A DNA stretch of 44,391 bases from Alphaproteobacteria bacterium (GCA_003250865.1 QKJH01000181.1:1-44391), one strand, 5' to 3'; counted from the stretch's first letter, positions 2,817 through 38,055 are shown. A program made the numbers and translations. Notes: generated by a model not told the origin, from the sequence alone.

Positions 2817-3206
2817 TCAATCGTCATGTGGATGGTCGCAGACAGTTTTGTCCAATCCGTAACCTCGCCCCGTGCCGGGAACACATAGGCTTTCACCATT
2901 TGCTATAAGGGTTCCTTGTATAAAGGAATCAAGTGTATTGTTTACATCTCCGGTAACTCCCGCAATTACCTGTATCCCATAAGAATTAAATATTTCCGTT
3001 GCTCTTGCTCCGATGCCGCCGCAAATAATTCTATGAACACCCTTTGAATGTAGGAACTCCGGAATAGCTCCGGGAGCATGACCCGGATTTGGAAGCCTCT
3101 CTGATTTTATCAGTTTACTGCTCTGTATCTCCGCAATCAAAAACTCAGGACATCTTCCGAAATGCGCGGATACTGAGTTGCAATCAGTTGAAATTGCTAT
3201 TTTCAA
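2817..3206 (-). CDS. NifB/NifX-family (dinitrogenase Fe-Mo cofactor-binding fold) protein
   Basis: MKIAIST...HFGRCPEF...IICGGIGARA pattern is typical of the NifX/NifB C-terminal fold. It is a paralog of 4919..5290. Confidence 0.75.
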   Translation of the reverse strand: MKIAISTDCNSVSAHFGRCPEFLIAEIQSSKLIKSERLPNPGHAPGAIPEFLHSKGVHRIICGGIGARATEIFNSYGIQVIAGVTGDVNNTLDSFIQGTLIANGESLCVPGTGRGYGLDKTVCDHPHDD

Positions 3207-11579: not shown

Positions 11580-11751
11580 GGAGAAAAAGACTATGATAAT
11601 TAAATAGGGAGATAAGAAACATCATTTCCTGTAATTGATAAACTGTTCTACACCTATTTTAATTAAATAGCATACGCACACAGCTATACTTCCATAAATT
11701 AAAAAGTAAGAAGCACTATGTATGGGCTGCCAAGCAAATGGCAGCTCCTTT

Positions 11752-22085: not shown

Positions 22086-23490
22086 GCTTATCCATCTCCT
22101 TTCCTTGTGTTTTTTCCTGATCTTCTGCTGCTCTACGGAGCTTATCCTTCATATCCGCAGAGCGTTTTTCAATGTCCTCACATAATCTCACCTCCCGGCG
22201 TAATTCTCCGATTTTCTCGGACAATTCGGATATTTGCGCTTTCACCGCCGCCAGTTTTTCTTCATCCCGGATGCTCCGGGACTGATAGCGCAAATGCTTC
22301 CGTGTTCCACAAAGACGGATAAGCTCCTTTGTCAATCCATCCTTATATCCGGCAAGCTGTTCCGCTGTATCAATACCGTACTTCACCAGAAGCCGCGTTT
22401 CCTTTGCGATATTCTGAACAAAGCGAATATCCTCGCGGAACAAAAAATAGACTTGTTTGGGATTCGGTTCTTTTTTCTTTGGAAGAACGCCCATTTTATA
22501 CAGATAAGAAAAATACAGGGCGCGAAGCCCTGTAATCCGTCTGGCCGTATTCAGTTTGCCGATAAAACGGTATTGCTTGGATGGTCGTTCTGCCGGGATG
22601 ATTCGCCGCTCCGGGCGGGTGTTCGCTAAGATACGGTTTCGGATAGATTCAATGGAATAATCCTCGCCAAAGTTGCGATAAAGCTTTAATCCGCTGTCTT
22701 TCCCCGGTGGCCGTACCGTAATGTCCTTGCCGAATTTGATATGCCAGCCTTTTTTATAAAGGTTATCCCAAAGCTGCCGCTCGGTCATGGATTCGGTTAT
22801 CGCTTGGTCAATGTCGGCTTTCACCAAAATACGGTAAGTGGGTTTCCCTTCCTTTTCGGCTTTCCACTCGCCGTAGTGCTTGGACTTTCCGCGCTTCGGT
22901 TCATCAATGACCGTCAGGCCATATTCCCGGCACAGCTTATCGGATTCGACTTGCATATTATAAAAATCCTTTTCAGTGCGGTGATAACGGATTCCGTCCA
23001 CCCACGAAACCGTGTTGACGATGAAGTGTGAGTGTAGATGATTGACTTTATCCAAATGAGTAGCGACAATCACCTGATATTTTTCTCCCCAAAGCCGCTG
23101 TGCCAGCTTCACGCCGATTTCATGCGCCATGTCGGGGGTAATCCCCGCCTGCAAATCTTCGGGCGCGAAAGACTGTATACCATGATAAGCGACAACGCCG
23201 TTTTCCTTCCCGAATTTCATTTTTGCCGCCATCATCTCGTCGCGGGCGATTTCCGGCTGACAGTTGATTCCGGTAACATAGTTCCGCAGGATTTCAGCCT
23301 TTTCATCGGTAAGCTGTGTTTTACGGGTTTGAGAAGCGTAATCTATAACATCGGAAAGCCCCTGCGTCTGCTTTTCCGTCATGCCCTGTTTTTCAAAATA
23401 GGCGGGGTTTGCGGTTTTGTCGGGATTCTCCGCATAAACCACCAATTTACCAAGCCAGCCCTTGACCGACCATATAGAAGTAACTGCCAT
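22060..23490 (-). CDS. relaxase / mobilisation nuclease
   Basis: N-terminal relaxase domain with the His triad HLDKVNHLHSHFIVN and a coiled-coil C-terminus. Its start overlaps the mobC stop. Confidence 0.85.
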   Translation of the reverse strand: MAVTSIWSVKGWLGKLVVYAENPDKTANPAYFEKQGMTEKQTQGLSDVIDYASQTRKTQLTDEKAEILRNYVTGINCQPEIARDEMMAAKMKFGKENGVVAYHGIQSFAPEDLQAGITPDMAHEIGVKLAQRLWGEKYQVIVATHLDKVNHLHSHFIVNTVSWVDGIRYHRTEKDFYNMQVESDKLCREYGLTVIDEPKRGKSKHYGEWKAEKEGKPTYRILVKADIDQAITESMTERQLWDNLYKKGWHIKFGKDITVRPPGKDSGLKLYRNFGEDYSIESIRNRILANTRPERRIIPAERPSKQYRFIGKLNTARRITGLRALYFSYLYKMGVLPKKKEPNPKQVYFLFREDIRFVQNIAKETRLLVKYGIDTAEQLAGYKDGLTKELIRLCGTRKHLRYQSRSIRDEEKLAAVKAQISELSEKIGELRREVRLCEDIEKRSADMKDKLRRAAEDQEKTQGKEMDKHEPFRGRR

Positions 23491-23831
23491 TATTCATTCT
23501 TCCTTTCCATTTGGCGGGGAAGCATAACGGCATTGGTGATCTCCACGATAGCCTGATGGAGAGCGGCGGCACTATCGTCGTACCGCTTCACATCCAGCAC
23601 ATTCAGTGTATGGGCTTTCTGTGCGATCTGATTGAGATTCCGGCCAATGCCATGAAGTTCTCTCATCATGTTGTAGTAATCGGGCGGCGGTACGTCGGTA
23701 GGAACAAGGCCGTTAATGATATGGCGCAGATAACTTTCACGGGATAATGCACTTTTTTTGACACGCTTATTGAGTGCTTCGGCTTCTTTTTTATTCAATC
23801 GTAATTTAATTTCAACCGTTCTGTTTTGCAT
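23490..23831 (-). CDS. MobC-family relaxosome accessory protein
   Basis: Start at ATG 23829-23831 (AAAGGAG SD). RLNKKEAEALNKRVKKSALSRESYLRHIING...LHGIGRNLNQIAQKAH is the MobC/RHH pattern. Confidence 0.8.
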   Translation of the reverse strand: MQNRTVEIKLRLNKKEAEALNKRVKKSALSRESYLRHIINGLVPTDVPPPDYYNMMRELHGIGRNLNQIAQKAHTLNVLDVKRYDDSAAALHQAIVEITNAVMLPRQMERKNE

Positions 23832-23857
23832 AGTCCGGCTCCTTTCATTGAGGGGTT

Positions 23858-23922
23858 TTAGGGGATTTTCCCCTAACAAGTTGCCCTTTGGGGACAAAGG
23901 GCGATGCTTGCCAGTATAGTGC
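23858..23922 (+). other. candidate oriT
   Basis: Two perfect inverted repeats: TTAGGGGA-TTT-TCCCCTAA (23858-23876) and GCCCTTTG-GGGA-CAAAGGGC (23883-23902). They are followed by GCTTGCCAGTATAGTGC, which loosely resembles ATAAGTGCGCC-type nic cores. The whole region lies directly upstream of mobC-relaxase. Confidence 0.55.
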
Positions 23923-23971
23923 ATTTCCGAAAGCTCGATCTTTCAGGAGTTCACCGTCCGAAAAAGAAAGC

Positions 23972-24157
23972 TCACCGCTCCTTCTCACGGTCGAGCAGCG
24001 TTCTGAAGGTCACGCCTTTAAAATGGTCGGCGTCCAGAATATAATCGCCGTCTTTCCAATTGCGTTCGGCAATCTCTCGCGCCTGCGCCGCGTTCGCAGC
24101 TTCCACCGTCACGGTCATTCCGAGAGTTTCTGTGATTTTGATTTCATATTCTTTCAT
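23972..24157 (-). CDS. DpnD/PcfM-family small protein
   Basis: MKEYEIKITETLGMTVTVEAANAAQAREIAERNWKDGDYILDADHF matches the remembered DpnD/PcfM pattern. Confidence 0.7.
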   Translation of the reverse strand: MKEYEIKITETLGMTVTVEAANAAQAREIAERNWKDGDYILDADHFKGVTFRTLLDREKER

Positions 24158-25110
24158 CGTGCAAAGCTCCTTTCTTTCGATTGATAGCGGGGCAACCCAA
24201 AACGATCACAGAGGTAATCGTTGTAGTCCTTGCCGGTGGGCGGTGGCTCGTCTGTTGCCTTGTACTGCGCTGGCAGGACTGTCATAATTGCTTTTGTAGC
24301 CAATCGCCCGGCAATATCATTGTCAAGATGCAAATGAACGTGCTGAATGTTCGGGTGATCGGTTAAGAACTGCGTAAGGGCAGGCGGTAAAGTGCTGTCC
24401 TCGATTTTCTTCTTAGGCTTATAAACACCCGAAAGGGAAAGCAGATTGCCATAGGCATGGTTTGTGTCTTTCTCCAATGTGACAAAAGAAAGTAGGTCAA
24501 TGGCGCTTTCAAACAAATGCAAATGCTGGCTTTTGCGGGGCATGGCAAAGGAGTAGTTTTTGTTGCTGCCGGAAACGTCACCTCTGAAATCGCTGTCAAT
24601 GCCCCGAACCGTAGCATATCGCGGAACTTTTTCGGTGTCATAACCCACAAAAACAATATTGTAATAACCGTTCCTATAATTCTGATACACCAGTTCGGAA
24701 TCGGTGCATAGGTGAATCAGGTCGTAGCTGATACCACGTTTATGCAAATACCTCTCCACCATAGACAAGCTGCAATCCCGTTTGGGAAGAACAAAGGGAA
24801 CGCTTTTTTGCGGCTTCGGTGTAGATATGAAAACGGGCGGCTGAATCGCCGCCCGTCCCATAATCTGTTCCACCGCATCGGTGAAGCTCAAACCTTTCAC
24901 CTTAATGAGATAATCTAAAGCCGATCTGCCACCAATCCCACGACTGTGCCAGCACCATTTTCCGTTGCTGATTTTCAGGCTGTCGTGGGTGCGGGTACAA
25001 TAGACGTTTCCGGAAAAGTGAACCAACTCCTGCGGTTCATAATTTTGGAGGTAAGCCAGCAAGTCCATTTTCTTAGCTTCCAGAATTACCTCCGGATCAA
25101 TATATGGCAT
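24154..25110 (-). CDS. DUF3991 plus Toprim domain protein (primase-like)
   Basis: Start MPYIDPE at ATG 25108-25110, 6 nt after AGGAGGTG. N-terminal zinc-binding-like / DUF3991 region. C-terminal Toprim acidic motifs (HLFESAIDLLS, HLHLDNDIAG). Confidence 0.75.
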   Translation of the reverse strand: MPYIDPEVILEAKKMDLLAYLQNYEPQELVHFSGNVYCTRTHDSLKISNGKWCWHSRGIGGRSALDYLIKVKGLSFTDAVEQIMGRAAIQPPVFISTPKPQKSVPFVLPKRDCSLSMVERYLHKRGISYDLIHLCTDSELVYQNYRNGYYNIVFVGYDTEKVPRYATVRGIDSDFRGDVSGSNKNYSFAMPRKSQHLHLFESAIDLLSFVTLEKDTNHAYGNLLSLSGVYKPKKKIEDSTLPPALTQFLTDHPNIQHVHLHLDNDIAGRLATKAIMTVLPAQYKATDEPPPTGKDYNDYLCDRFGLPRYQSKERSFAR

Positions 25111-25134
25111 AGAAACACCTCCTGACATGAAATA

Positions 25135-25162
25135 AGCCGATTGGCTGTTATACCAATCGGCT
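25135..25162 (-). terminator. hairpin after the 414-aa orphan gene
   Basis: AGCCGATTGG-CTGTTATA-CCAATCGGCT is a perfect 10-bp stem. TATTT follows on the minus strand. Confidence 0.5.
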
Positions 25163-25206
25163 ATGTAAAAAGTCTTTAAAAAATTTTTGAGTTAAATTCA
25201 AATACG

Positions 25207-26451
25207 TTATTTTGATAATAATACGAAATATTGAAATAGCTTATTTAATCTTTCAATTTCCTCAGAGTAAATTTTCTCCTGTTGTTTAAAATTCTGAATT
25301 CCCAATGTGCTTAATATATGAGCTTTGGTAGTTTCCTGTTTATCTTTTGAAAGCAGATGGTCTAAGTATATACGGTAATCATGTAGAATATATAATGGCG
25401 AAATCAGTATTTCGATGTCAATATTCTTTTCCATTCCATCACAAAATTTCTTCAATACTTCTTTGAGCAGACGAATAGACTGCCATTTTTTATATTCTTT
25501 TTTCCTTTCCGTTTCAATATATAAGGCTTCATATAACAATCTTAGTTGTTCGACATTAAAGCCCTCAACTAAAATTTTATCAAAGGCATTTATTACACCA
25601 GATACGCTTTGCTCGGTAAAAATAATAGGTCGCTTAACGTTTTTAGCATGAGAAACACATTCTTCATCCAAATGAGTTAAATCAATCCCATACTTCTTTT
25701 TTATATTTGAGATAAAGTTGTCTTTATTGATTAATATCTGATTTTCTCTTATTGGCTCACTAAAAATGCAATTCATCTGTGCCTGAAAAAATTCTGAATT
25801 TGTTATCAAATGGTCAGAGTCTATATTAAAACTTTTAAGAATAGCTTGGCTTTGATCATCCATATCATTCAAGTCACCTAACCAAAATACCAATTTCCCA
25901 TGAGAATTGAACCCAAATGGAACAGCCCATTCATATTGATATATACTTTCTGGGTCTTTTTTCCCTATGTGTCCATATGTTTCAGAAAAAATATCTACTT
26001 CAAAATCGGGAACAGATATAAAATAAATTAGAGCTTTTCTATCAAAATATACCGGAGTTAAAAAACCTTCTACTGAATGTTCCTCATCATAACATAATCC
26101 GGGTATACTGTAATAATCTCTATAATCATAGGAAAAATCCTGACGTTGGCAGTAATCAAACTTTTTTCTATATTCCTTGCGAATGAAATTTCCTTCGAGT
26201 TGATTTTCTTCTACCATACTTTTATAACATCCATCAATCATTCTTTTTGAATGCATAGACAGACACTTTGCTCCACATTTTGCGCATTCAAACACAAGTA
26301 GTTCAGCATAATACAAAAATCTATCCTCTATTTTTACTGTTACTTCATCTTCAACAATTTCTCGTATTCCATTGCAGTTGTTACATTTGTCCATATGGTA
26401 TCTTTTATATTCAGACAAAAAATCATCATAGGTTTTAAACTCAATGTTCAT
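25207..26451 (-). CDS. hypothetical protein with N-terminal zinc-ribbon-like motif (AT-rich cargo gene)
   Basis: 414-aa ORF with CNNCNG ... CAKCGAKC. Codon usage and base composition are strikingly AT-rich compared with both neighbours. No family recognised. Confidence 0.7.
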   Translation of the reverse strand: MNIEFKTYDDFLSEYKRYHMDKCNNCNGIREIVEDEVTVKIEDRFLYYAELLVFECAKCGAKCLSMHSKRMIDGCYKSMVEENQLEGNFIRKEYRKKFDYCQRQDFSYDYRDYYSIPGLCYDEEHSVEGFLTPVYFDRKALIYFISVPDFEVDIFSETYGHIGKKDPESIYQYEWAVPFGFNSHGKLVFWLGDLNDMDDQSQAILKSFNIDSDHLITNSEFFQAQMNCIFSEPIRENQILINKDNFISNIKKKYGIDLTHLDEECVSHAKNVKRPIIFTEQSVSGVINAFDKILVEGFNVEQLRLLYEALYIETERKKEYKKWQSIRLLKEVLKKFCDGMEKNIDIEILISPLYILHDYRIYLDHLLSKDKQETTKAHILSTLGIQNFKQQEKIYSEEIERLNKLFQYFVLLSK

Positions 26452-26517
26452 AAGCGCACTCCATTTATAATTTGTATAGTTAAACTTTTATTCAGTGCCT
26501 ATCAGTTTGAGATTATA

Positions 26518-26546
26518 ATTATATCATAAATTTATGGGATTTTCTA
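26518..26546 (-). promoter_or_regulatory. promoter of the 414-aa orphan gene
   Basis: On the minus strand: TAGAAA (26546-26541), 17 nt, then an extended -10 TGATATAAT (26526-26518). This is about 65 nt upstream of the ATG. Confidence 0.5.
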
Positions 26547-26708
26547 CCCTCGAGGGGTATGTAAAAAGCAGCATCAGCCATCAGCTAATGCCACTTTCTG
26601 CAAAATTCATTCAGTTAAATCGCACCAATCTTTTAAGATACGCTAAGTTGTCTGCGTGTCCGTAAAATAAAGGCTCTGCTCTTCGGCTTCCAACTGCAAA
26701 TGTGCGAA

Positions 26709-29700
26709 TTACCGTTCCAAACCCGCGACCTTTGGAGCGCGTTCCGTTTCGCCCTCATCTGGGGCGTAGTCAAGAATCGCACTGTCTTTTTCATCCATGT
26801 TTAGCAAAGAGTTCACTTCCCGGAGCCGTGCAGATTTCGTCAAATATTCCTGCTCCTGCGGAAACGGGCGTAATACCTCGCCCTGTGCTGATTTAAACTG
26901 CGTTTGCGTATCCGCAAGGGTACTTTCGCAACGTTGGAGCGATGAAGAAAAGCTCTCCAGCGCATTGTCAAGGCGGGTGATATTGCCGTGGATGTCCGTA
27001 CCCAATTTGATCGTGTGGGAGAGCGCGCCGGACAGCGTAACACGGTACTCTTTTGCGTAGCTGTCAAAGGATAATATCATCTGAAAGCCGCGATATTCGC
27101 CCACCGGAACAGGGTCGGGGGAAGTCATGGCTTTGCAGGCTTCAATGATGGCTTTGCCCGCGTCGGCTTTCTCGGCATAAAGAATCCCGCCTACGGTCAT
27201 GGGCGGGAAGTGGTCTTTATCTGCCGGGTGCTTTGCTGAGGTTTCCATATCGGCCTTATAGCCTGCTATCCGTTCAGTCATCCGTTTGATTTCCTGCGGA
27301 TATTCCTTCAAAATCTTATCTTCAAGAGCGTACCGCTGGCTCAAATGGCTGGCTTGCAGGATCTTCAGCTTGTTCACGTCCATTTCAAGCTGGCACTTTT
27401 CGATAATCAGTGGATTTCCCGTTGCCAACGCTTTGATTTCAGCATAACTCAAAGCCGTTTCGTCCACGTCCTCGGCAATGCGGGCGGGCGTTTTGCTGGT
27501 CATGACTTGGGCTATAAACTTCTGTTTGTTTTCCACAAGCTGATAGAGGTAGCTGTCGAACGTTCCCTCGGTAACATAACGGAATATCTCGACTTCGGCG
27601 TTTTTATTGCCCTGCCGGACAATACGCCCAAGCCGCTGTGCAAGGTCGCTCGGCCGCCAAGGGCAGTCGAGGTCATGCAAGGCAATAAGTTTATCCTGCA
27701 CGTTGGTTCCCGCACCCATTTTCTGTGTGCTTCCCATCAGATTACGGATTTGACCTTTGCGCACCTTTGCAAAAAGTTCCTTTTTTTGTGCTTCAGTAGT
27801 GGCTTCGTGGATAAAAACGGTTTCATCTACGGGAACGCCTTTTGCGATTAGTTTCTTTCTGAGGTCGTCATATACATTGAGAAATTCGACAGAATGAAGT
27901 TCACCGTCTTTTTCTACCATCTCATTGTTCTTTTTTGGTGTGGATAAATCGCAGAAAATAAGCTGTGCCAACTGTTTATCTTTATTTTCTTCCCAAATAC
28001 GGAATACCTTTTCGGCACAGACCGCAACTTTGCCTTCCGGGTCGTCGGGTAACATGGGATTGATAAGCCGCTGGTCAAGCGCCAGCTTCCTGCCGTCGTT
28101 CGTCACCTTGAGCATATTATCAACGGTAGGATCAACATCGCCTTTGCGTATAGCTTCGGCGCGCTCGGCCAGTTCCGCTACCATATCCTGCTGCCACTGG
28201 CTCGGTTTGATGACGATGGTGTGAAAATTCGCCTTTGGCACGGGTAGTTTGAGCATATCGGCGGTTTGAATGTCGGCAACCTGCCGAAACATAGCCATAA
28301 GCTCCGGGAGATTGTAAAACTTAGCGAATCGGGTTTTGGCGCGGTAGCCGGTTCCCTCCGGCGCAAGCTCGATGGCGGTCACCGTTTCCCCGAACGTACT
28401 CGCCCATGCGTCAAAATGCTGCAAGCCCTGACGTACCAATTCCTTGTATTGAAGATACCGCTGCATGGTATATAGCTCCACCATGCTGTTTGAGATCGGC
28501 GTACCTGTGGCAAAGACTGTGCCGCGACTGCCCGTAAGCTCATCAAGATATTGTGTTTTCATGAACAAGTCGGAGCTTTTCTGAGCTTCGGTCTGTGCGA
28601 TACCGCCCACATTCCGCATTTTTGTTAGCAAAAATAAATTTTTAAAATAGTGCGCCTCGTCGATAAAAAGGCGGTCTGTACCAAGTTCTTCAAAGGTGAC
28701 AACGTCATCCTTGCGGCTTTGATCGTTCAGCTTTTTCAGCTTCACCTCAAGGTTTTTCTTCATTTTTTCCATTGCCTTGATTGTATAGCGTTCGCCGTTG
28801 TTTGCCTTGATTTCAGAAATGCCCATGACAATTTCATCAATCTGCCGCTCCATCATAGCCTGCTGGCGTTCTACGCTCATGGGGATTTTTTCAAACTGCG
28901 AATGTCCGATGATAATTGCGTCGTAATCCCCGGTGGCGATCCGGGCGCAGAATTTTTTACGGTTTTTGGTTTCAAAATCCTTTTTGGTCGCTACAAGGAT
29001 ATTCGCGGAAGGATAAAGCTGCAAAAACTCTGACGCCCACTGCTCGGTGATATGATTCGGTACGACGATCAGGCTTTTGTTGCACAGCCCCAAACGCTTG
29101 CTTTCCATCGCGGCGGCTACCATTTCAAAGGTTTTGCCCGCGCCCACTTCGTGCGCCAATAGGGTGTTGCCGCCATATAGGATGTGGGCGATTGCGTCTA
29201 TCTGGTGCTTTCTCAATATAATTTCGGGGTTCATGCCGGGGAAGGTAAGGTGTGAGCCGTCATACTCGCGGGGTCTTATGCTGTTGAATTTGTCGTTATA
29301 CATCCGGCAGAGCCGTTCACGCCGGGCGGGGTCTTGCCATATCCATTCCTGAAACTTGGAACGGATAAGCTCCTGCTTGGCCTGCGCGATGGCGGTTTCT
29401 TTTTTATTCAGGACGCGCTTTTCAGTTCCGTCCGGGTCATACACCTTGTCCCAAACGCGAACATCCCGCAGATTCAGTGATTCTTCGATGATTTTATAGG
29501 CGTTGATACGCTGTGTGCCGTAGGTGTTAAAGGAATGGATATTGCTTCTGTCGTAGTTCTTTTCGGTTATATTCCATTCCCCATTATAATGGGTATAATG
29601 CACCTTTACGCGCCCACGGGCATAACTCGGTGTTTGCAAAAGTTCATACATGAACTGCTGAACAACATCCTCCGGGAGCCATGTCGCGCCCAGGCGCACC

Positions 29701-32700
29701 GATATTTCGGCGGCGGTCAGGTCGGGCGGCTGCGCCGCTTCAAGGGCTTTGACATTAACGGTATAATCCTCCGGGTAAAGCTCGGCACTCTTTTTCGCCC
29801 ATTCCAGCTTTTCCCGGACGTTGCCGGAAAGGTATTCATCGGCGGTCAGGTATTTTTCTTGATTGTTACCGCTATATCCGTGCATAGGATTGAGGAAAAT
29901 CACGCCTTCAAGCTCCTTGGCCAGCGTTTCCTCGGTCATGCTTGTAAGCTGCGCCATGAAAGGCAGATCAACCCTTGCTTTTTCGGCCAGTGATACCGCC
30001 AACGCTTCGCTTGCCGTGTCCACATGGGTAACGGGGATATGCGCCTGTATGGTGCGCTTACTAAACATATCGGCTTTGCGCTCCAGCTCGCCGTTTTCGT
30101 CGATGACTTCCAGAGAGCAAAGCAGGCAATAGGCGCTGTCCTGTGAAAACGCTATGCTGTTGCCGCGCGAATTGATAAGCCCGTATTTGCGGGTAAAGCT
30201 GTCATACAGGCGGTTCAGCTTTGCCTGTTCCGCTTGTATGGCGCTGTCAGGATAATCGCTGGTCTGATAGAAAATCAGGTTACGGACGCACTCCCGCAGT
30301 TCTATCAAGCCCTTTACACGGCTTTGCGTCGTAACAGGCAGCTCCACGGGAACCATGCGGCTGTCCTGCCGGTAGTAGATTTGTCCTTCCACAAGGGTAT
30401 AGCTGAAATTACGCACATTCGGGTCAGAGGGGATGGAATGATCTTCTTCCAGTTCGTCCTCATCGTATTCGTATTCGGTGATTTCAGCGTGAATATTGGT
30501 GATAGCTTCGTCAAGCTGTGCCGGAAGGTCGCTGTCCTCAAACGGGTTACAGGCGGTTTCTTTCCCGTTGCCGTACATCCTATCGTCCCACGCCATTGTG
30601 CCGAGTATCATGTCGGGGTGTTCGGCAAAATAGCTGTTGACGGGTATGCCGTCCTCTGTTTGTCCCAAATGCACCCAATCGGGTTCAATGTCGATAATAC
30701 GGTCACGTTTTTGTAAAAAGATGATGTCTGTGGTGACTTCCGTTCCGGCATTGGCTTTGAAAGCCGTGTTGGGAAGCCGTATCGCGCCGAGCAGATCCGC
30801 CCGCTGCGCAATATACTTACGGACGGCGGGGTTTTCTTTGTCCAGCGTTCCCTTTGAGGTTACAAACGCCACGATACCACCGGGGCGTACCTTGTCCAGC
30901 GTCCGGGCAAAGAAATAATCGTGGATGTGGAATTTGTATTTGTCATACCGCTTGTCGGCAACCTTATAATTCCCAAACGGCACATTGCCGATGGCAAGAT
31001 CGAAAAAGCTGTCGGGCAGGTCGGTTTTTTCAAAGCCTTGTATGGCAATGCTGTTCCTTTGGTATAGCTGTTGGGCGATGCGCCCGGTCAGGCTGTCAAG
31101 CTCCACACCGAACAGCTTGCTCTCCCTCATAGATTCGGGCAGAAGGCCAAAGAAATTACCGATGCCGCAGGATGGTTCCAGCACATTACCCGTCTTGAAG
31201 CCCATGTTTTCCACAACTTTATAGATGGCTTTGATAACGGTGGGGCTGGTGTAATGGGCGTTCAGGGTGCTTGACCGCGCTGATTCGTATTCGTCAGGTG
31301 AAAGCGTAGCTTGAAGCTCAGAAAACTCATTTGTCCATGAGGTACTCTCAGGGTCGAACGCCTGCGGTAAGCCGCCCCATCCCACATACCGCGCCAATAC
31401 TTCCTGTTCCTCCGGCGTGGCAAAGCGGTTTTCAAGCTCAATCGCTTGCAGGGTCTTGATCGCTTCCATATTGTTGCGGAATTTCGTCTTTGCACCGCCC
31501 ACGCCTAAATCATCGTCTATAATACGGTAATTATGGCGCTCGGACATGGGAATTTCCGGGTGCGGGTCAAAGGTCTGCGTCCGGCTGCGGCGTTTGGCCT
31601 GCTCCCACGCGGGGATCAGGGTTTCTTCTTTTTCGGCTGGCTTGTAGGGAGGGAGGTCAATAACAATGCTCTTTAATCCGCCCTCTATCTCCTTGAATAC
31701 GGGTTCATCAGATGTAGTCTGCTGTGTTTCTTTTTCGGCTGGTAAGTCCTGCGGCTTTTCTTCTATGGGGTCATACTGACGGATAAAGTCCAGCGGTTCG
31801 CTGCGGAATATGGGAAAACCCACGCCGTTTTCAAAGGTAACATCCCGCAGCTTGATCTCGTCGGCGTCCTCGTCTACGCTGTCAACGATAAACTGCCTGC
31901 CGTCGATTTCATACCGCTTACCGACAAGGAATTCCGGCGTTTCTTCCTCTGTGAGATAGGCGTACTCGATAAAGTCGGCAATCTCCTTGTAATCGCCTGT
32001 ACCGCCTCGATTGTCGTATTCCTCCAGACCGACCTCAATCAATTCGTCGGAAACGATATACCCGCGCCAGTCCAGCGCGTCACGGATTTGGTCTTTCAGT
32101 TCCGCATCTTTGTCAATGTCCGGTTCCTGCTGCGGTTCCGTTACGCCCTCATCGGTCTTGATAAGCCCGTCATTCAAGTGGTTTTCCCGCAGCTTGCGGT
32201 CAAATTCGTCGCGGGGCATTTCCTGTGTGAATATCGGAAATTTCACGTCCCGAAGCACCACATGGGTATCGTCAAAGGAATAAATCTCGTATTCATCCGT
32301 ACCGAGATACACCGAAACGCCAAGCTGAAGGTCATACTGGACAGCTTCATCAGTGGGAACGGCAGACAACTCCGGCGCTTTGGGTGCGGGAGCAGCCGTT
32401 TCTTTTTCGGCAGGTTTCATAGGAGTGAACAGCGAAAACGTGCCGTTTTGATATGCGGTCAGGTGGTCGAACGCTCTCCGCATCAATTCATAATTACGGT
32501 CAAAATCGGCGGTATTGTCGAGCATCACCGCCATTTGGCTGAGAATTTCTGCGACACGCTCCGGCTCGTCAAGCTGTGGACGAACGATTTTCACGCTGTC
32601 CCAAAAGTCCGTACCGTGAGGAAACTGACGCGGTAAATCTTCCGACTGATAGGGGTAGAAGCTGACAACCTCTCTTGCCAGTTCTTCCTTTTCATATTCA

Positions 32701-34964
32701 GGAATATAGTCAAGCTCACGCTGGCTCATATACCGCCCGTCCGCGATAAGCTCATCAATGCGCTTGGCAACCTTGCCCCACGGCAGGATAACCTTGTCGT
32801 AGGGCATATGATTATTTTCCCGGCTGAATGAAATACCTTTGCTGTCGTGCCATTCGGTAGTACCACTGCCACCTGTTCCGTATTCATCTTTTAAGAAATT
32901 GGATTTTTCTTTGGCGGTATGGTTTTGTAAAAAGAAAGAATAGACGCGGAATTTACTGTCCTCAATATTTGCCCCGCCGATTAAGAGCGCGTCAACCTCG
33001 TCCTGTGTTATAAAACCCGGACGCGCGGTGGAAACCGATTCGTCGGCGGTAAACACAAGAGATTCGCGCTGTAAGTCTTTAAGCCCGCGCAGAGCGTCCG
33101 GTACATGCCAATGGAGATAATTTATCCACTTAAAATCATCTGATAATGCACCTGACCGCGCAATCTGCCAATCGCCGTCCAACTTATTGATAACGAGCTG
33201 GAGAGTTTCGGGATTGCATAGATGTTCTGCTATTACAGGGACACATTGATGGAAATTGGAACCGTTTACTGTCCATTCCTGCGGCAGTTTTCCCACGCCG
33301 TCCCGGTAGATGAAATACAGTTTTGAGGTCAATTCCGATAACACAAGGCCGTCTGCCTTGTCGATTTCTTTTTGCGGGGCATATCGGCCCATGTCCAGCA
33401 GTTCGCGGATTCGCCTTGCCGCCTGTTCCCATGTAACAACGGAAGCGTCTGCGACGTTCAGCGCGGTGTCGCCTACGGCAACATGGATTCCGCTCTCGTT
33501 AAACCAAGCCGCTACATGATTCCCGCCGAAAAGAAAGCCCTTGCCGCCGCTGCCGTACTCCTGTTTGAGAAAATCAGCATTATCGGCTGTTGTATGGTCT
33601 TTTTTGAAATAGTAAACAATACGGTGGATGCTATTTTCCTTGTTGCCGCCGCTGGTCAAAACTTCGTCAATGATTTGCTGAGAAAAAGAAAAAGCGGAGG
33701 ATTTGGCTTTCGCCGTTTCCTCCGCTTCACCCATAAGGGTAAGCTGTTGGTATTCTGTTGGCAGGGGTTTTATGCGAATATCAGGTCGTTCAGTATCGTT
33801 TCCTCCGCCGCCTGCCGGATGTTGTTCATCAACCCCACCCACTGCATTTGATTCTCGGCTTTCATCTGCTCCGTAACGCCCTGTGCCGCCGCCATCTGTG
33901 CGGTCAGCAGTTCCATCCTCTCGTTGGCCGTCTGCTCGGTCTCCATCAGGTGTTGGTTGAGGGTGCAACTCGTCAGCAGATTGGTGAACAGAATCCTGCG
34001 GTGCTGTTTCAGATATTTCTTTCGGAGCAATGCGTACTTGCCAAGGGTTACGGGCGGTTCCTCCGGTACTGTCAGGTTGGGTACGCGATAGTTGCTCTCC
34101 ATCCGATATGTCAGTTCCATATTCAAAACTCCTCTCATGTTGCTCTTTATTTGTATCATCATTATGGGGTATTTTCTCTTTGGATGCAAATGTGCGATTT
34201 ATATTTCTTTCTTGTTTTTGCAAAGTTATCACGGTAGCCGCAATTTCACGCAGACAGGTTTCCGCAATGTCGCTGGTCGCTATACCGAGAGCATTGACGG
34301 TCTGCCGGGTATTAAATTCCGCAATGCTTTGAAAGTCCTCAAAATTAAAATAGCTTTCACCGTCGATACCGCAGCGGATCAGAAGCATATACGCTACGCT
34401 GTTTTGAAGTGCGGTACGGTAAGCCACTTCCACGTTGAAGTCGTCCAGTTCTTCCAAAAAGCTGTCCTCACGGCAGTACTTGAGTTCATTCAGATAATCT
34501 GTGAGGTTATCGTCCACGGCGTTTTTTGCCGCAGAAATAAGGGCGGCGGCCAATGTGGACGTGTCCTCAAGCTCGCCAAAGGAATTTTCCAAATGCTCAA
34601 TGACTTCGGCATCATACCGTGCGTTCATCTGCCAAATTGGTACAGGTCGGGCGTTACGGCTCTCATGGGTGTCTGAAATATCAAAATAATGCTTCAGACG
34701 GGAATTGCCGTTATGCTCATCATCAAAGACGGCAATCCCTGTCGCGCCTTTGTTTACCCATCGGCCAAACTGCTTGTTCCATTTTTCAATTTCAAGGACA
34801 GCCGTTGCGTCCGGGCGTTGGGTGTAAATCAGGATTTGCTCGTCAAAGCGGCATTTGTAGTTGCGGCAGGCAGAGCGCATGAACCTCATCCACTCGGTCG
34901 GTGTGTTTGTCACCCGCCCAAGGGTGGATTCATATGCGTCTGTGATTAGCTGGTATTTTGTCAT
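26709..34964 (-). CDS. polyvalent protein: ArdC-N-like domain, duplicated LPD-type domains, N6-adenine DNA methyltransferase, SNF2-family helicase
   Basis: Uninterrupted 2751-codon ORF with an AAAGGAGG SD. MTase motif I NVLEPSCGIGNFF (31149-31187) and motif IV GNVPFG (30972-30989). Helicase GAGKT (29130-29144), DEAH (28650-28661), TGTPISNS and QRLGRIVRQGN. Confidence 0.85.
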   Translation of the reverse strand: MTKYQLITDAYESTLGRVTNTPTEWMRFMRSACRNYKCRFDEQILIYTQRPDATAVLEIEKWNKQFGRWVNKGATGIAVFDDEHNGNSRLKHYFDISDTHESRNARPVPIWQMNARYDAEVIEHLENSFGELEDTSTLAAALISAAKNAVDDNLTDYLNELKYCREDSFLEELDDFNVEVAYRTALQNSVAYMLLIRCGIDGESYFNFEDFQSIAEFNTRQTVNALGIATSDIAETCLREIAATVITLQKQERNINRTFASKEKIPHNDDTNKEQHERSFEYGTDISDGEQLSRTQPDSTGGTARNPWQVRIAPKEISETAPQDSVHQSADELHPQPTPDGDRADGQREDGTADRTDGGGTGRYGADESRESNAVGGVDEQHPAGGGGNDTERPDIRIKPLPTEYQQLTLMGEAEETAKAKSSAFSFSQQIIDEVLTSGGNKENSIHRIVYYFKKDHTTADNADFLKQEYGSGGKGFLFGGNHVAAWFNESGIHVAVGDTALNVADASVVTWEQAARRIRELLDMGRYAPQKEIDKADGLVLSELTSKLYFIYRDGVGKLPQEWTVNGSNFHQCVPVIAEHLCNPETLQLVINKLDGDWQIARSGALSDDFKWINYLHWHVPDALRGLKDLQRESLVFTADESVSTARPGFITQDEVDALLIGGANIEDSKFRVYSFFLQNHTAKEKSNFLKDEYGTGGSGTTEWHDSKGISFSRENNHMPYDKVILPWGKVAKRIDELIADGRYMSQRELDYIPEYEKEELAREVVSFYPYQSEDLPRQFPHGTDFWDSVKIVRPQLDEPERVAEILSQMAVMLDNTADFDRNYELMRRAFDHLTAYQNGTFSLFTPMKPAEKETAAPAPKAPELSAVPTDEAVQYDLQLGVSVYLGTDEYEIYSFDDTHVVLRDVKFPIFTQEMPRDEFDRKLRENHLNDGLIKTDEGVTEPQQEPDIDKDAELKDQIRDALDWRGYIVSDELIEVGLEEYDNRGGTGDYKEIADFIEYAYLTEEETPEFLVGKRYEIDGRQFIVDSVDEDADEIKLRDVTFENGVGFPIFRSEPLDFIRQYDPIEEKPQDLPAEKETQQTTSDEPVFKEIEGGLKSIVIDLPPYKPAEKEETLIPAWEQAKRRSRTQTFDPHPEIPMSERHNYRIIDDDLGVGGAKTKFRNNMEAIKTLQAIELENRFATPEEQEVLARYVGWGGLPQAFDPESTSWTNEFSELQATLSPDEYESARSSTLNAHYTSPTVIKAIYKVVENMGFKTGNVLEPSCGIGNFFGLLPESMRESKLFGVELDSLTGRIAQQLYQRNSIAIQGFEKTDLPDSFFDLAIGNVPFGNYKVADKRYDKYKFHIHDYFFARTLDKVRPGGIVAFVTSKGTLDKENPAVRKYIAQRADLLGAIRLPNTAFKANAGTEVTTDIIFLQKRDRIIDIEPDWVHLGQTEDGIPVNSYFAEHPDMILGTMAWDDRMYGNGKETACNPFEDSDLPAQLDEAITNIHAEITEYEYDEDELEEDHSIPSDPNVRNFSYTLVEGQIYYRQDSRMVPVELPVTTQSRVKGLIELRECVRNLIFYQTSDYPDSAIQAEQAKLNRLYDSFTRKYGLINSRGNSIAFSQDSAYCLLCSLEVIDENGELERKADMFSKRTIQAHIPVTHVDTASEALAVSLAEKARVDLPFMAQLTSMTEETLAKELEGVIFLNPMHGYSGNNQEKYLTADEYLSGNVREKLEWAKKSAELYPEDYTVNVKALEAAQPPDLTAAEISVRLGATWLPEDVVQQFMYELLQTPSYARGRVKVHYTHYNGEWNITEKNYDRSNIHSFNTYGTQRINAYKIIEESLNLRDVRVWDKVYDPDGTEKRVLNKKETAIAQAKQELIRSKFQEWIWQDPARRERLCRMYNDKFNSIRPREYDGSHLTFPGMNPEIILRKHQIDAIAHILYGGNTLLAHEVGAGKTFEMVAAAMESKRLGLCNKSLIVVPNHITEQWASEFLQLYPSANILVATKKDFETKNRKKFCARIATGDYDAIIIGHSQFEKIPMSVERQQAMMERQIDEIVMGISEIKANNGERYTIKAMEKMKKNLEVKLKKLNDQSRKDDVVTFEELGTDRLFIDEAHYFKNLFLLTKMRNVGGIAQTEAQKSSDLFMKTQYLDELTGSRGTVFATGTPISNSMVELYTMQRYLQYKELVRQGLQHFDAWASTFGETVTAIELAPEGTGYRAKTRFAKFYNLPELMAMFRQVADIQTADMLKLPVPKANFHTIVIKPSQWQQDMVAELAERAEAIRKGDVDPTVDNMLKVTNDGRKLALDQRLINPMLPDDPEGKVAVCAEKVFRIWEENKDKQLAQLIFCDLSTPKKNNEMVEKDGELHSVEFLNVYDDLRKKLIAKGVPVDETVFIHEATTEAQKKELFAKVRKGQIRNLMGSTQKMGAGTNVQDKLIALHDLDCPWRPSDLAQRLGRIVRQGNKNAEVEIFRYVTEGTFDSYLYQLVENKQKFIAQVMTSKTPARIAEDVDETALSYAEIKALATGNPLIIEKCQLEMDVNKLKILQASHLSQRYALEDKILKEYPQEIKRMTERIAGYKADMETSAKHPADKDHFPPMTVGGILYAEKADAGKAIIEACKAMTSPDPVPVGEYRGFQMILSFDSYAKEYRVTLSGALSHTIKLGTDIHGNITRLDNALESFSSSLQRCESTLADTQTQFKSAQGEVLRPFPQEQEYLTKSARLREVNSLLNMDEKDSAILDYAPDEGETERAPKVAGLER
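33770..34120 (-). CDS. TnpV-like protein, encoded in an alternative frame inside the polyvalent ORF
   Basis: 116 codons from ATG 34118-34120, with a GAGAGGAG SD 8 nt upstream. MELTYR..YRVPNLTVPEE...LGKYALLRKKYLKQHRRILFTNLL...GVTEQMKAENQMQWVGLMNNIRQAAEETILNDLIFA follows the remembered TnpV family pattern. Confidence 0.6.
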   Translation of the reverse strand: MELTYRMESNYRVPNLTVPEEPPVTLGKYALLRKKYLKQHRRILFTNLLTSCTLNQHLMETEQTANERMELLTAQMAAAQGVTEQMKAENQMQWVGLMNNIRQAAEETILNDLIFA

Positions 34965-34978
34965 GGAGATACCTCCTT

Positions 34979-35233
34979 TCAGCGTTCATAATCTCTGTGC
35001 TTTTTATAAAAGCACGGATCGGTTCCGTGTAATTCTCCCGTATATTCAAACAGGTTGTATGCGGGGATATATATTTTTCCGTTTTCCTCACACTTGAAAA
35101 GGTCGCAATCCCTGATCGGTGAGGCGGTGTAAAAATCTTCATACGAGAAATTTTTATCATTCATAATCGGCGCATTGTAATCTACGCCCATTGCCATATT
35201 TTCAAAACTTGCAGCCTTTCCCGTTAGCTTCAT
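34979..35233 (-). CDS. small hypothetical protein (start uncertain)
   Basis: 84 codons from ATG 35231-35233, but that ATG has no SD. The frame stays open upstream to the TGA at 35297-35299, and the only SD (AAGGAGAGG) is there. Confidence 0.5.
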   Translation of the reverse strand: MKLTGKAASFENMAMGVDYNAPIMNDKNFSYEDFYTASPIRDCDLFKCEENGKIYIPAYNLFEYTGELHGTDPCFYKKHRDYER

Positions 35234-35296
35234 AAACGGCGTGAAATGATAGCCGCCGTATTCAAATGTTAGAGCATTTATTTTAATCCTCTCCTT

Positions 35297-36039
35297 TCAG
35301 CGTTCCGGTTCCTTCTTTTTCGGCTGGTTCGGGTTTCGGAGAGTGCCGTCCGCTTCATAATTCCACGGTTTTGCGCCGGGAACAGTCCAACCGAACATAC
35401 TCCCGGTACGCATAGCTTCCTCCTGCGCCTTTGTTATTTCCAATCTTTCATTGATGAGGTCGGCGGTTCTGCGGTTCGTCTGTCGGCCATTGGTTGTATA
35501 ATCACAGCGATAATAGCCCGATTCGCCGCGTTTAATGATAATGACCTCCCCCCGGTATCCGGCAATGTGCTGTAACAAAATTCCGGCAGTTCATGCTGTC
35601 CGGCCAGTTCGGGCAAGAGATAACGATTATCAAAGCAGAAGATATACAGGTCATAATCGCCTTCATGAGGTGTACAGCGAACATAATAGCTGTAAGCGTC
35701 AGTCTGAATTTTGAATCCGGCCTTTGTGTCATGCCAGCCTCCGTTTATATGCTGTTCGGGATGGGCGTAGCAGTATCTGCGCATATCAGCACGGCTTTTT
35801 AATACGGGGTTTTCGATATTCTCCCGAAGATAATTTACCATACCATCAAACTCCGCTTTGAACGCTTCACTTTTTAAATGCTTCTGATTGTCAAACCATG
35901 TGGTATAGAACAGGCTTCCGGTATCGAAATCTCCACGCAAATGCCCGATTGCGCCGAACCGCGCAGGGTCGTCATCCAGCGCGAAAAACAATTTGTGTTC
36001 CTCAGACTGTACGGGTAATAATTCATATTTTTCATTCAT
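35297..36039 (-). pseudogene. LPD-type conjugative-element gene split by a frameshift at a homopolymer
   Basis: ORF 35434..36039 (start MNEKYELL behind TAGGAGG) and ORF 35297..35578 overlap and switch frame at the C6 run 35548-35553 (G6 on the coding strand). The downstream piece has no SD of its own. Confidence 0.55.
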
Positions 36040-36052
36040 CTGCGTAAACCTC

Positions 36053-36871
36053 CTATCGTTCATAATCTCTGCGTTTTGGCTTTTCAGGTTTGAAAGGCAG
36101 ACTGTCTTTCTCCTTGTTTACCCGTCGATACAAATCCCTCATGGCATCCACGCGGCGGTCATAATAATGCCCCCAATCGAAACGCTTGCTGTTTTTATAC
36201 CCCTGCCATGTGACAAAAGGTTGGACGGCACGAGGATTCTCAGCCAATATAAATATCTTTTCATCAACCGGAATCCGAACGGTAGTGGTATAGCCGGATA
36301 CGGTATCTCTATGTGAGACGGGAAGCGTCTCAGGTTCAAAAAAGGATTGCACCGGGACAAAGCCAAAGCTGTCCACATAATATGCCGTAACAGCGTTGTC
36401 CTTCAATAGAACCACCACATCACTCACGGATAACGACCGCATTTTTTGCCCAAACGGTCGGTCATCCGAGTTGTGCCACGCGAACAGCCCATCCAAAGAC
36501 TGACCCCGAGAGAGCATGGCGGCATATACACGCGTATAATCCAGCGGATTGAATGCTATTTTCGCTTCCTCAAAGGAGCGAAAAGCATAATCGGTATTTC
36601 GGATGTCCCGAATTTGATAAATCTCATACATCCCTATATCTTCAGGACGCCTATCGCTTGGGGTGAACACCGCGCTTTTTTCGGCCTGCTCCTGCGCAAA
36701 AGCTCCAGCTTCATAGATACAGCCCCCGATATTTGTTTCAACTGCGCTCACATACTTGCAGGTGAGCGTCGTTTTTTGCCCGATAAAGGAAATGACTTCA
36801 ATACAGGTATTATCGGGCATACGAAACAACTCCCGACGATTTGTATCTGTAAAAACAATCTGTTTGTCCAT
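36053..36871 (-). CDS. YodL-like domain protein
   Basis: MYEIYQIRD...YAFRSFEEA...YTRVYAAML...LSVSDVVVL...AYYVDSFGF follows the YodL-like domain pattern seen in conjugative elements. Confidence 0.6.
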   Translation of the reverse strand: MDKQIVFTDTNRRELFRMPDNTCIEVISFIGQKTTLTCKYVSAVETNIGGCIYEAGAFAQEQAEKSAVFTPSDRRPEDIGMYEIYQIRDIRNTDYAFRSFEEAKIAFNPLDYTRVYAAMLSRGQSLDGLFAWHNSDDRPFGQKMRSLSVSDVVVLLKDNAVTAYYVDSFGFVPVQSFFEPETLPVSHRDTVSGYTTTVRIPVDEKIFILAENPRAVQPFVTWQGYKNSKRFDWGHYYDRRVDAMRDLYRRVNKEKDSLPFKPEKPKRRDYER

Positions 36872-36874
36872 TCG

Positions 36875-37738
36875 TTATCTCTCCTTATCCCTGTATTTTT
36901 CCGCGCCCGATTTTTCTGCTTGAATTGCGGCCGATTTTTCTTTTGCCCACGGGGGCAAGCACTCTGCCCGAACCTCACCCAATACCTCATAACGTTCAAA
37001 CCGGGTGCGCTTACCGTCATGCAGGTGATTACAGAAAACAGCGTTTCCGTGCGGGTTAGCTCTCGCGCCGTTACCTCCTGTGACAAGCACAAGCTGGACA
37101 TCGCCACGGCAGTATTCCGGGCGAAAGACAGCCGCTTTAATGGCAACAATTTTCCCTTCTATGCTTTGGCTGTAATCATTCGGGTAACAATGCTCTGCGG
37201 TAAATAATTCATGGGGCATTTTGCTTTGACTTATCTCATTACGCATCATTTCAATTTGCTTGCTCACCCGTTCGGTAAACTCCTGCATCGCTTCCAGAAA
37301 ATCGTCGCTCACCATACAGTCGGAATATTGTCCAATCAAATCGTTGCAGGTGTAATTGCCAACAAAATAACACATCCCGTTTTCCGCTTTTTCATCCACG
37401 GCAAACAGGATTTCCTTATCACCCACATGAATACCGTGCTTCACTTCATAAGCTGTATCGCTCACCATGCGGATTTGCTCTTTGGCTTCCAGCTTTTCTT
37501 CTATTTCGCGCAAGCCTTCTAACAGCGGCTTGACCTCCGCAACATAAATCTCATGATCGTCGAAGGTATCGGATATTTCCTCAATATCCTTGATGGTTTC
37601 CCGTACTAACGGGAGATCGGATAAATAGTCCTCAATCTCGGCAATAGGAGTCTGCGAATCATCGTTTTCATAATGGCCGTTTTTGTCATTATCCTTTAGA
37701 AATTCATATATTTGTTTGGCAAATGCCTTTTTATCCAT
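36875..37738 (-). CDS. hypothetical conjugative-element protein
   Basis: 287-aa ORF, acidic N-terminal half, AAAGGAGAGAG SD. No family recognised with confidence. Confidence 0.6.
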   Translation of the reverse strand: MDKKAFAKQIYEFLKDNDKNGHYENDDSQTPIAEIEDYLSDLPLVRETIKDIEEISDTFDDHEIYVAEVKPLLEGLREIEEKLEAKEQIRMVSDTAYEVKHGIHVGDKEILFAVDEKAENGMCYFVGNYTCNDLIGQYSDCMVSDDFLEAMQEFTERVSKQIEMMRNEISQSKMPHELFTAEHCYPNDYSQSIEGKIVAIKAAVFRPEYCRGDVQLVLVTGGNGARANPHGNAVFCNHLHDGKRTRFERYEVLGEVRAECLPPWAKEKSAAIQAEKSGAEKYRDKER

Positions 37739-37762: not shown

Positions 37763-38026
37763 TCATTTCAAAATATACTTGTTAGGCGCACGGCCTCCGT
37801 AATCGTCGTATTGTGCGACAACCTCGATATAACCCGCGTCACGGAGCCTGCGCAGATTGCGGCTGACGGTGGATTTCGCAATCCGCAGGGATTCGCTGAT
37901 CCGGCGCTGTGGAATGGTCACGACATTGTTTTCGTCTGTAATATCCATCAGGATAAGGTAAAGCAGCTTGCCGGATATGGATGTGTCCACCTCTCCGAAG
38001 GGCTTGTACTTTGCCATTTTATTCAT
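37763..38026 (-). CDS. winged-helix / HTH transcriptional regulator
   Basis: Start at ATG 38024-38026, 8 nt after AAGGAGG. IPQRRISESLRIAKSTVSRNLRRLRDAGYI is the HTH. Confidence 0.7.
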   Translation of the reverse strand: MNKMAKYKPFGEVDTSISGKLLYLILMDITDENNVVTIPQRRISESLRIAKSTVSRNLRRLRDAGYIEVVAQYDDYGGRAPNKYILK

Positions 38027-38055
38027 TAAATAAACCTCCTTGTTCATGTAAGAAA

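Follow-up and report, generated by a model that had tools for sequence, protein, structure and literature searches.

We analysed a stretch of 44,391 nucleotides (hereafter the window; GCA_003250865.1 QKJH01000181.1:1-44391), which is a whole contig of a fragmented metagenome-assembled genome (MAG) named as an Alphaproteobacteria bacterium. Housekeeping genes for peptide deformylase, Fur, a Znu-type ABC transporter and Fe-S proteins fill bases 1-11.5 kb, so that the left end of a mobile element is placed at ~11.7 kb, and all substantial genes from 11.75 kb to the right contig end lie on the minus strand. These minus-strand genes form one end of a Tn1549/CTn4-like integrative conjugative element, whose machinery comprises a MOBP7-type relaxase and a Firmicute type IV secretion system (T4SS) with VirB4, coupling protein, PrgI and CHAP hydrolase; the rest of the element, integrase included, falls off the contig. 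We focus here on the 23.9-37.7 kb block beside the origin of transfer, which by sequence comparison is probably the first-entering conserved block of a Tn1549/pC221-type element.

The minus-strand series starts with the T4SS part (CHAP hydrolase, VirB4-like ATPase, PrgI, a VirB6-like protein and a pilin-like protein) and continues with a VirD4-type coupling protein, a 293-amino-acid (aa) ArdC-N protein, PcfB/DUF3801, a MobA/VirD2-type relaxase and a NikA/MobC-like protein. Past a 140-bp gap follow PcfM, a DUF3991-Toprim protein, an AT-rich gene, a 2751-aa protein, two small genes and YodL, and then a 287-aa gene, a small winged-helix gene, a 927-aa protein and DUF4320-containing pilus-like genes.

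Origin of transfer and predicted nick

The 140-bp gap upstream of mobC carries an origin that is of the pC221 type by its sequence and architecture. Its parts and the adjoining mobilization genes are as follows (a slash inside a sequence or a coordinate pair marks a cut).

23852..23912, plus strand: origin of transfer of the pC221/Tn1549 type (MOBP7), assigned from sequence, pC221 architecture and stem covariation
23852-23859, plus strand: origin tail GGGGTTTT
23858-23864 and 23870-23876, plus strand: origin palindrome, TTAGGGG and CCCCTAA
23877-23880 and 23907-23910, plus strand: outer stem, CAAG and CTTG
23883-23902, plus strand: inner hairpin GCCCTTTG-GGGA-CAAAGGGC
23906-23912, plus strand: nick core GCTTG/CC, with the predicted nick between 23910 and 23911
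23914..23922, plus strand: the "nic-like" GTATAGTGC of an earlier note on this DNA, 3 nt 3' of the predicted nick
23490..23831, minus strand: MobC/NikA-like relaxosome accessory protein, 113 aa (PF21983 E 9e-13, PF05713)
22060..23490, minus strand: relaxase of the MobA/VirD2 type (PF03432 E 9e-34)

The module adjoins the mobC-relaxase operon, with 21 nt between the module end and the mobC start at 23831; the ribosome-binding site and ATG read there correct the start previously given at 23924. Two perfect hairpins stand upstream of mobC, and the region folded as single-stranded DNA gave z = -2.7. Only one such module occurs in the window, where a second, inverted copy was sought and not found.

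Among relatives found by their relaxase, a near-identical gap is present in two MAG loci at 83-84% identity and in records of the plasmid collection with relaxases of 35-55% identity, or 31% for Tn1549 on pMG2200. The hairpins of these relatives show compensatory changes. A genome search across the class with the window relaxase matched 2/401 genomes, too few for comparison. The family was sampled through a motif scan of metagenomes that yielded 120 loci, a sample biased by its choice through the motif. All share one architecture on the strand of the nick core, namely GGGGTWTT, TTAGGGG-loop-CCCCTAA, an outer arm, a variable inner hairpin and the second outer arm. The outer stem covaries (CAAGC/GCTTG, CGAGC/GCTCG, CAAGA/TCTTG and CTAGA/TCTAG, here with the slash between paired arms) and is present in 62 of 100 unique family sequences vs. 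9 of 100 shuffled controls. The orientation seen in the window, with mobC just downstream, was found in 57 of the 85 loci with enough flank, and in 55 of these 57 the relaxase is downstream too. The sequence-conserved palindrome is probably bound by MobC, and the composite hairpin, the sequence of which varies among relatives while its pairing is kept, is probably the specificity element of the relaxase.

Sequence logic alone is ambiguous as to the nicked strand, since either flank of the module fits an "inverted repeat 5' of nick" arrangement. A mapped relative provides an anchor. Supplementary Table S1 of PMC5789077 gives experimentally determined nick sites, cut in the middle of a 10-mer and written as the complement; its entries used here are RP4 CCGGG/CAGGA, ColE1 TTAAG/CCAGT and pC221 (MOBP7, Caryl et al. 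2004) TTTGG/CAAGC. Because the table uses complement notation (as for RP4), the nicked strand of pC221 reads GCTTG/CCAAA. The window has GCTTG/CCAG at 23906-23914 on the plus strand, identical to the mapped pC221 site at 8/10 bases. Upstream of its mobC, pC221 carries GGGTAT-GGGATATAATCCC-AT-CAAGC-hairpin-GCTTGCCAAACC, and at the same module position the window plus strand reads GATGCTTG/CCAGTATAG. The window relaxase is 29% identical to pC221 MobA (E 7e-24) and 31% identical to the Tn1549 relaxase, and MOB-suite types both plasmid records (pC221 and the Tn1549-bearing one) as MOBP. As the origin module aligns element by element with that of pC221, we predict the nick at 23910/23911 on the plus strand; the 23.9-37.7 kb block would therefore lead, with the relaxase and T4SS genes as the last to enter.

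The earlier note had reached the same strand and side through its nic-like motif. That call is probably right, by way of the pC221 nick homology. The inverted repeats that it placed 5' of the nick are present as hairpins; GTATAGTGC itself gives way to the GCTTG/CC core as the nick. The motif has a single occurrence in the window, yet at least one match turned up in 17/100 shuffles, and it is not conserved in Tn1549, in pC221 or in locus L008, which has the gene order of the window. Other nick candidates were tried and set aside. Neither a ColE1-like TATACTGG/C on the minus strand nor a pMV158-like GTATAGTG on the plus strand is conserved in relatives. An RP4-like heptamer, TATCTTG/C, occurs in some relatives; it is too short for significance alone and is superseded by the pC221 match.

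With a cut by the relaxase at 23910/23911, the plus strand would lead 5'-first toward higher coordinates, and the nick core would be antisense to mobC in this element. In the order of entry that we infer (the timing of expression and all protein functions given here are likewise predictions), PcfM, the DUF3991-Toprim primase and the cargo slot would come first to third, followed by the DarB-like methylase/SNF2 polyvalent gene (fourth), the small modular genes, YodL and the winged-helix gene with its partner (fifth), the adhesin and Tad-like pilus genes (sixth) and, last, the Mob and T4SS genes (seventh). The primase would prime the complementary strand, and the giant protein would protect the incoming DNA from restriction by methylation and/or a DarB-like action. 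The prediction and its entry order apply to a common class of conjugative elements of gut Clostridia, and what supports the nick is a relative with an experimentally mapped site instead of a guess from a motif. As candidates for establishment functions we name the 8.2-kb DarB-like gene and the primase, and the AT-rich gene is a defence or cargo candidate.

The block beside the origin and its orientation in relatives

The genes of the block and two genes outside it that bear on the argument are listed below.

20365-21246, minus strand: stand-alone ArdC-N-domain protein, 293 aa (PF08401)
23972..24157, minus strand: DpnD/PcfM-like small protein, the first gene behind the predicted nick (PF14207 E 1e-18)
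24154..25128, minus strand: DUF3991-Toprim primase-like protein (PF13154, PF13155 (Toprim_2); PHROG DNA primase)
25159..26568, minus strand: AT-rich single-gene cargo cassette in a variable slot (gene 25207-26451, 414 aa)
26709..34964, minus strand: 2751-aa polyvalent protein, DarB-like (PHROG, Pfam, PADLOC)
34979..35296, minus strand: small protein of ~100 aa, start probably upstream of the ATG at 35233
35297..36063, minus strand: frameshift-split gene, with the break near a G-run at ~35550
36053..36871, minus strand: YodL-like protein (PF14191 E 2e-18)
36875..37738, minus strand: 287-aa backbone protein with at least 184 homologues
37763..38047, minus strand: small winged-helix DNA-binding protein, paired with the 287-aa gene

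Every substantial open reading frame (ORF) at 23.9-37.7 kb is on the minus strand, as had been claimed, and profile matches bore out the listed identities DpnD/PcfM, DUF3991-Toprim, methylase/SNF2 protein and YodL. The 2751-aa protein contains a methylase (~aa 1214-1440) and an SNF2 helicase (~aa 1915-2520), with Pfam matches to PF07669 (Eco57I-like/type II methylase region), PF00176, PF00271 and PF04851 and PADLOC matches to MTase_II and BrxH/DrmD-like helicase models; over aa 1140-2728 it matches phrog_10089, "DarB-like antirestriction", with E=0. The ArdC-N head that had been proposed for it is tentative: aa 1-400 gave no PF08401 match at E<=0.1, and in a pairwise comparison the head aligned weakly (E 6e-5) with the 293-aa ArdC-N protein. 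The DUF3991-Toprim protein is, by its profile matches, probably a conjugative primase, and its gene is kept next to the origin in relatives. In one relative (L025, 18348-19262) a primase-polymerase-like gene with an NrS1-1 pol-like domain stands in place of DUF3991-Toprim, a non-orthologous replacement; this swap at the same position supports a priming role for the backbone slot. In all syntenic relatives the stand-alone ArdC-N gene is found at the same place as in the window, where by our prediction it lies on the late-entering side.

Comparison of the window proteins with relatives by tblastn indicated that the whole gene order is conserved: 287-aa gene, split small gene, giant protein, slot, Toprim, slot, origin, MobC and relaxase, and past the relaxase PcfB, ArdC-N-like protein, coupling protein and T4SS. 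The order from the polyvalent gene through the coupling protein is kept in L003, L008, L009 and L010, and the relaxases of the syntenic relatives are only 35-84% identical to that of the window. Only two small slots vary. The slot between the giant gene and Toprim holds DUF6664, DUF3848, a lipoprotein or other unknowns in relatives, and the slot between Toprim and the origin holds DUF3846, DUF3789, a HipA-like kinase fused to a helix-turn-helix (HTH) domain, or PcfM. In a Subdoligranulum element (L009, 13651-15045), a 464-aa HTH + HipA-like kinase gene lies between Toprim and PcfM, and the oriT-proximal slot there thus holds a gene of the toxin-antitoxin type. The earlier description of the block as an anti-defence island was not borne out by this comparison; as judged from gene content and order, the 23.9-37.7 kb block is a conserved DNA-processing and anti-restriction backbone with two variable slots, not a variable island.

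The orientation of the origin is not constant in the family. In pC221 (3085-3160 of its record) the module is inverted relative to mobC, and the nick lies on the sense strand next to mobC; the mob genes of pC221 would therefore enter first. At least six metagenomic sister loci, among them L031, L081, L097, L109 and probably L071, also have an inverted module and, where flanks are present, keep the order polyvalent gene, Toprim, origin, MobC, relaxase and coupling protein. With the module inverted in pC221 and in sister loci, origin orientation appears evolutionarily labile, and because it varies, the relaxase side does not tell the leading side in the MOBP7 family. On this comparison, the leading position is not a fixed property of the primase/DarB block, which would lead in some elements and lag in others.

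We consider it an even chance that, within MOBP7, an origin module of ~60-90 nt has been flipped against an unchanged order of primase, origin, MobC and relaxase. With the same even odds, the DarB/primase block would enter first in window- and Tn1549-like elements, with the transferred strand as template, and the relaxase side would enter first in pC221, L031, L081, L097 and L109, with the same block last and on the non-template strand in the sister elements. If this is true and both orientations work in full-size elements, the family provides a natural experiment on the value of early anti-restriction entry, the alternative being that anti-restriction proteins act from the donor or travel as proteins. 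The shortcut "relaxase side = lagging side" would then mislabel part of the Firmicute elements. Leading regions not being assignable from relaxase position alone in this family also matters for large anti-defence surveys.

Several observations weigh against a block that leads from a plus-strand nick. The nick homology amounts to 8/10 bases and an architecture shared with a plasmid relaxase of only 29% identity, and in this element and its close relatives the nick is a predicted one. The inverted modules of the sister loci and the ArdC-N-like gene at 20365-21246, on the side predicted to enter last, count in the same direction, and the DarB-like assignment of the 2751-aa protein is a family label only. 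Co-orientation, which the earlier note had read as a signal, is uninformative: every element gene at 11.7-44.4 kb is on the minus strand, T4SS and mob genes included. A Frpo/ssi-like single-strand promoter was sought in the block and not found, the genes at 38.0-26.7 kb being packed without gaps; in the one gap of some size (26452-26708), folding is no stronger than in shuffled sequences (z = -0.44).

Some of these points fit an explanation by descent, which we regard as possible though somewhat unlikely. It holds that the block stands beside the origin as an inherited DNA-processing module and not by selection for early entry. The same gene order accompanies an inverted origin in L031, L081, L097 and L109, where entry of the block would come last. 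The block itself is backbone kept among relatives rather than variable, there is no space for single-strand promoters, and all element genes are on one strand. On the other side of the balance, the window-like orientation outnumbers the inverted one 57 to ~6 (in the motif-sampled, biased family), and other elements show a statistical enrichment of DarB, ArdC and primase families in their leading regions (PMC11541004). Under descent, the proteins of the block might work from within the donor or cross as proteins, and "leading-region island" would be the wrong frame even with the block entering first here, a corollary that we likewise hold only tentatively.

A nick on the minus strand, the sense strand of mobC, would reverse the order of entry: mobC, relaxase, PcfB, ArdC-N-like protein and T4SS genes first, and 23.9-37.7 kb last. 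Such a nick could fall, for example, after the tail CCCCTAAAACCCC/, beside the mobC ribosome-binding site. One point for it, which also counts against a plus-strand nick, is a strictly conserved tail of 6-8 nt (AAWACCCC) that follows the palindrome on that strand in a "hairpin plus 8 nt" geometry. Many relaxases use this geometry. A cut after the tail was seriously considered and was rejected in view of the mapped pC221 cut, which falls inside GCTTG/CC at the end of the composite hairpin and not past the palindrome tail; in the window GCTTG/CC is on the plus strand. It is true that pC221, the sole family member here with a listed mapped nick, is cut on the sense strand upstream of mobC, but the inversion of its whole module fully explains this. 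The ArdC-N-like gene lies 2.7 kb away on the mobC side, and the minus strand reads TATACTGG/C, which resembles the ColE1 nick region, a string without conservation in relatives. We judge both a minus-strand nick and the entry order that it implies to be improbable. 

We concluded that the window most likely represents a Tn1549/CTn4-kind element with a pC221-type plus-strand nick and a conserved primase/DarB block that would enter first, a reading to which we assign a probability of about 0.65 from sequence and gene order.

The AT-rich cargo gene and other ORFs

The earlier note had singled out four ORFs of the block as the best candidates for new anti-defence activities. The first, the 414-aa gene, sits in an AT-rich cassette (G+C content (GC) 0.32 vs. 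~0.48 on either side) with the following features.

26546-26518, minus strand: promoter-like site of the cassette
25162-25135, minus strand: terminator-like hairpin of the cassette
25159-25172 and 26555-26568: 14-nt direct repeat GG(C/G)TATGTAAAAAG flanking the cassette

Each repeat copy adjoins a hairpin; read on the minus strand as CTTTTTACATA(G/C)CC, the repeat resembles the core TACATAGC(T/C)GAG at the edge of a cargo slot in another genome.

The gene had been taken for an orphan, but at least 178 homologues (45-76% identity) are spread over Clostridia and Negativicutes; a homologue was sought in five syntenic relatives and found in none. Homologues stand next to LmuB_C/MC3/CTD7 (Lamassu-like) genes, a TIR protein, an AEP-SNF2 protein, SIR2_2 + ResIII, a type I restriction system, a STAND-like ATPase with a FokI-like nuclease, or PglZ/BrxL of bacteriophage exclusion (BREX). 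Other copies close a prophage lysis cassette or lie amid several insertion sequences, and in the only further conjugative element found with a homologue the gene belongs to a reverse-oriented cargo block. These contexts point to defence or moron cargo. In one locus (L150, 7911-10585), the homologue lies between 346-aa and 92-aa fragments of a peptidase M42 gene, beside PglZ and BrxL (BREX), and appears to be inserted into that gene. An identical 425-aa homologue in four loci (L015-L018) has constant right neighbours (an IS30-like integrase, IS66 and two DUF6273 genes) and differing left neighbours (a prophage lysis cassette or a tRNA methyltransferase gene), and it seems to move within a larger block. 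The AT-rich gene as an insertion sequence was rejected, as DNA similarity between copies does not extend past the ORF and no terminal repeats are conserved.

The 414-aa protein had no match in PADLOC, Pfam, NCBIfam or PHROG. Its structural model is confident (predicted local distance difference test (pLDDT) score 91.9), and compared with PDB and BFVD it gave no meaningful fold match beyond an N-terminal MqsA-like zinc ribbon. The best reading of the gene is exchangeable, unrelated cargo in a family-wide variable slot, and from the genomic neighbourhoods a defence or moron gene is more likely than a counter-defence gene. That it was acquired as counter-defence in the leading region is very doubtful: its distance of 1.3-2.5 kb from the predicted nick, its template strand, its own promoter-like site and its fold without a known counterpart would suit that origin, but its absence from all syntenic relatives, its homologues in defence-island-like neighbourhoods, after prophage lysis genes and among insertion sequences, the copy that interrupts peptidase M42 and the reverse-oriented cargo block of the sole other conjugative element found with it argue otherwise. 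As the best anti-defence candidate, 25207..26451 is therefore not supported.

For the second ORF (34979..35233), relatives of ~100 aa cover the extension upstream of its ATG, and in some relatives the domain of the 34979..35296 protein is fused to DpnD/PcfM. The third, given as a single ORF at 35297..36039, is a gene split by the frameshift, the closest intact relative having 245 aa. The domain of this 35297..36063 gene is widespread and modular, found stand-alone or within larger proteins. A contiguous, seemingly intact paralogue is present on contig C175 of the same genome. The fourth, 36875..37738, proved to be a backbone gene, and its candidacy for anti-defence was not supported: it follows the small winged-helix gene in 5/5 relatives checked, and in one lineage it lies behind ParA-ParB. 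The confident model of the 287-aa protein (pLDDT 86.5) gave no meaningful fold match in PDB. The protein looks regulatory or maintenance-related rather than obviously counter-defence.

Contig C175, together with contig C157, belongs to a second, related conjugative element in the same genome bin, whose giant protein is 57-72% and whose VirB4 is 93% identical to that of the window. The junction between host and element lies at 11580-11750, just below the CHAP gene stop, with a GC of 0.40 on the host side; attachment site and integrase are not definable there, the other end of the element being off the contig.

Comparison with known systems

Polyvalent proteins of conjugative elements were reportedly described by Iyer and colleagues in 2017. 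Like phage P1 DarB and other polyvalent proteins, the 2751-aa protein is a giant polypeptide in which a methylase of the N6-adenine type and a helicase of the SNF2 type are joined. Unlike them, it has an extra N-terminal part of 1,100 aa built of repeated unknown modules, and its ArdC-N head is a weak assignment.

Also close are the Tn1549/CTn2/4/5-like elements of Clostridia, which likewise have a MobC + MOBP relaxase operon directly behind the origin. The oriT of Tn1549 is said to have been placed in the orf29-orf28 gap by Tsvetkova and colleagues in 2010, and the Tn1549 homologues of the window relaxase and accessory protein are Orf27/Orf28. Its module has the same orientation as in the window, with GCTTG/CTAC on the antisense strand and a palindrome TTGGGG..CCCCAA next to mobC, and elements of this type also have a YodL-bearing giant protein. 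The CD1110 and CD1115 family annotations of VirB4 and VirD4 come from L008 and L010, which share the gene order of the window, and not from the Tn1549 stretch. Tn1549 differs in its relaxase, of only 31% identity, and in what lies upstream of the origin, which is vanB cargo on the other strand and no primase/DarB block.

The oriT-mobC-mobA region of pC221/pC223 (MOBP7) shares with the window homologous MobC and relaxase proteins (29% identity for the relaxase) and the succession of short palindrome, CAAGC, inner hairpin and GCTTG/CC, with 8/10 bases at the nick. pC221 is a 4.6-kb rolling-circle plasmid and not a conjugative element, and its module is inverted versus mobC: the nick is sense and mobC-proximal there and the mob genes would lead, whereas the predicted nick of the window is antisense and distal.

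The gene content of the block is what Samuel et al. 2024 (PMC11541004) already describe, their supplementary table of leading-region-enriched families including DarB, ArdC, primase/helicase, DpnD/PcfM-like and YodL-like families. The window resembles these leading-region islands of conjugative plasmids in that the origin separates the block from the relaxase, in DarB-like, ArdC-like, methylase, primase, PcfM-like and YodL-like families, and in a transferred strand that would serve as template, a likeness that does not discriminate since T4SS and mob genes share the strand. The first-entering side comes from the pC221 nick homology, that is, from a predicted nick, and the module is inverted in sister elements; a known anti-defence gene in the block is indicated by family name, through the phrog_10089 match and the PADLOC methylase models. 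The anti-defence layout claimed before stands for the gene families and falls for the island. Unlike those islands, the block is mostly conserved backbone with one dominant gene of 8.2 kb, no Frpo/ssi-like element was detected in it, the element is chromosomal, and, with MOBP7 origin orientation not being fixed, it cannot be assumed that the relaxase side lags. What the window adds to the already known arrangement of the block is, in the main, a homology-anchored nick prediction and an origin whose orientation is not fixed.

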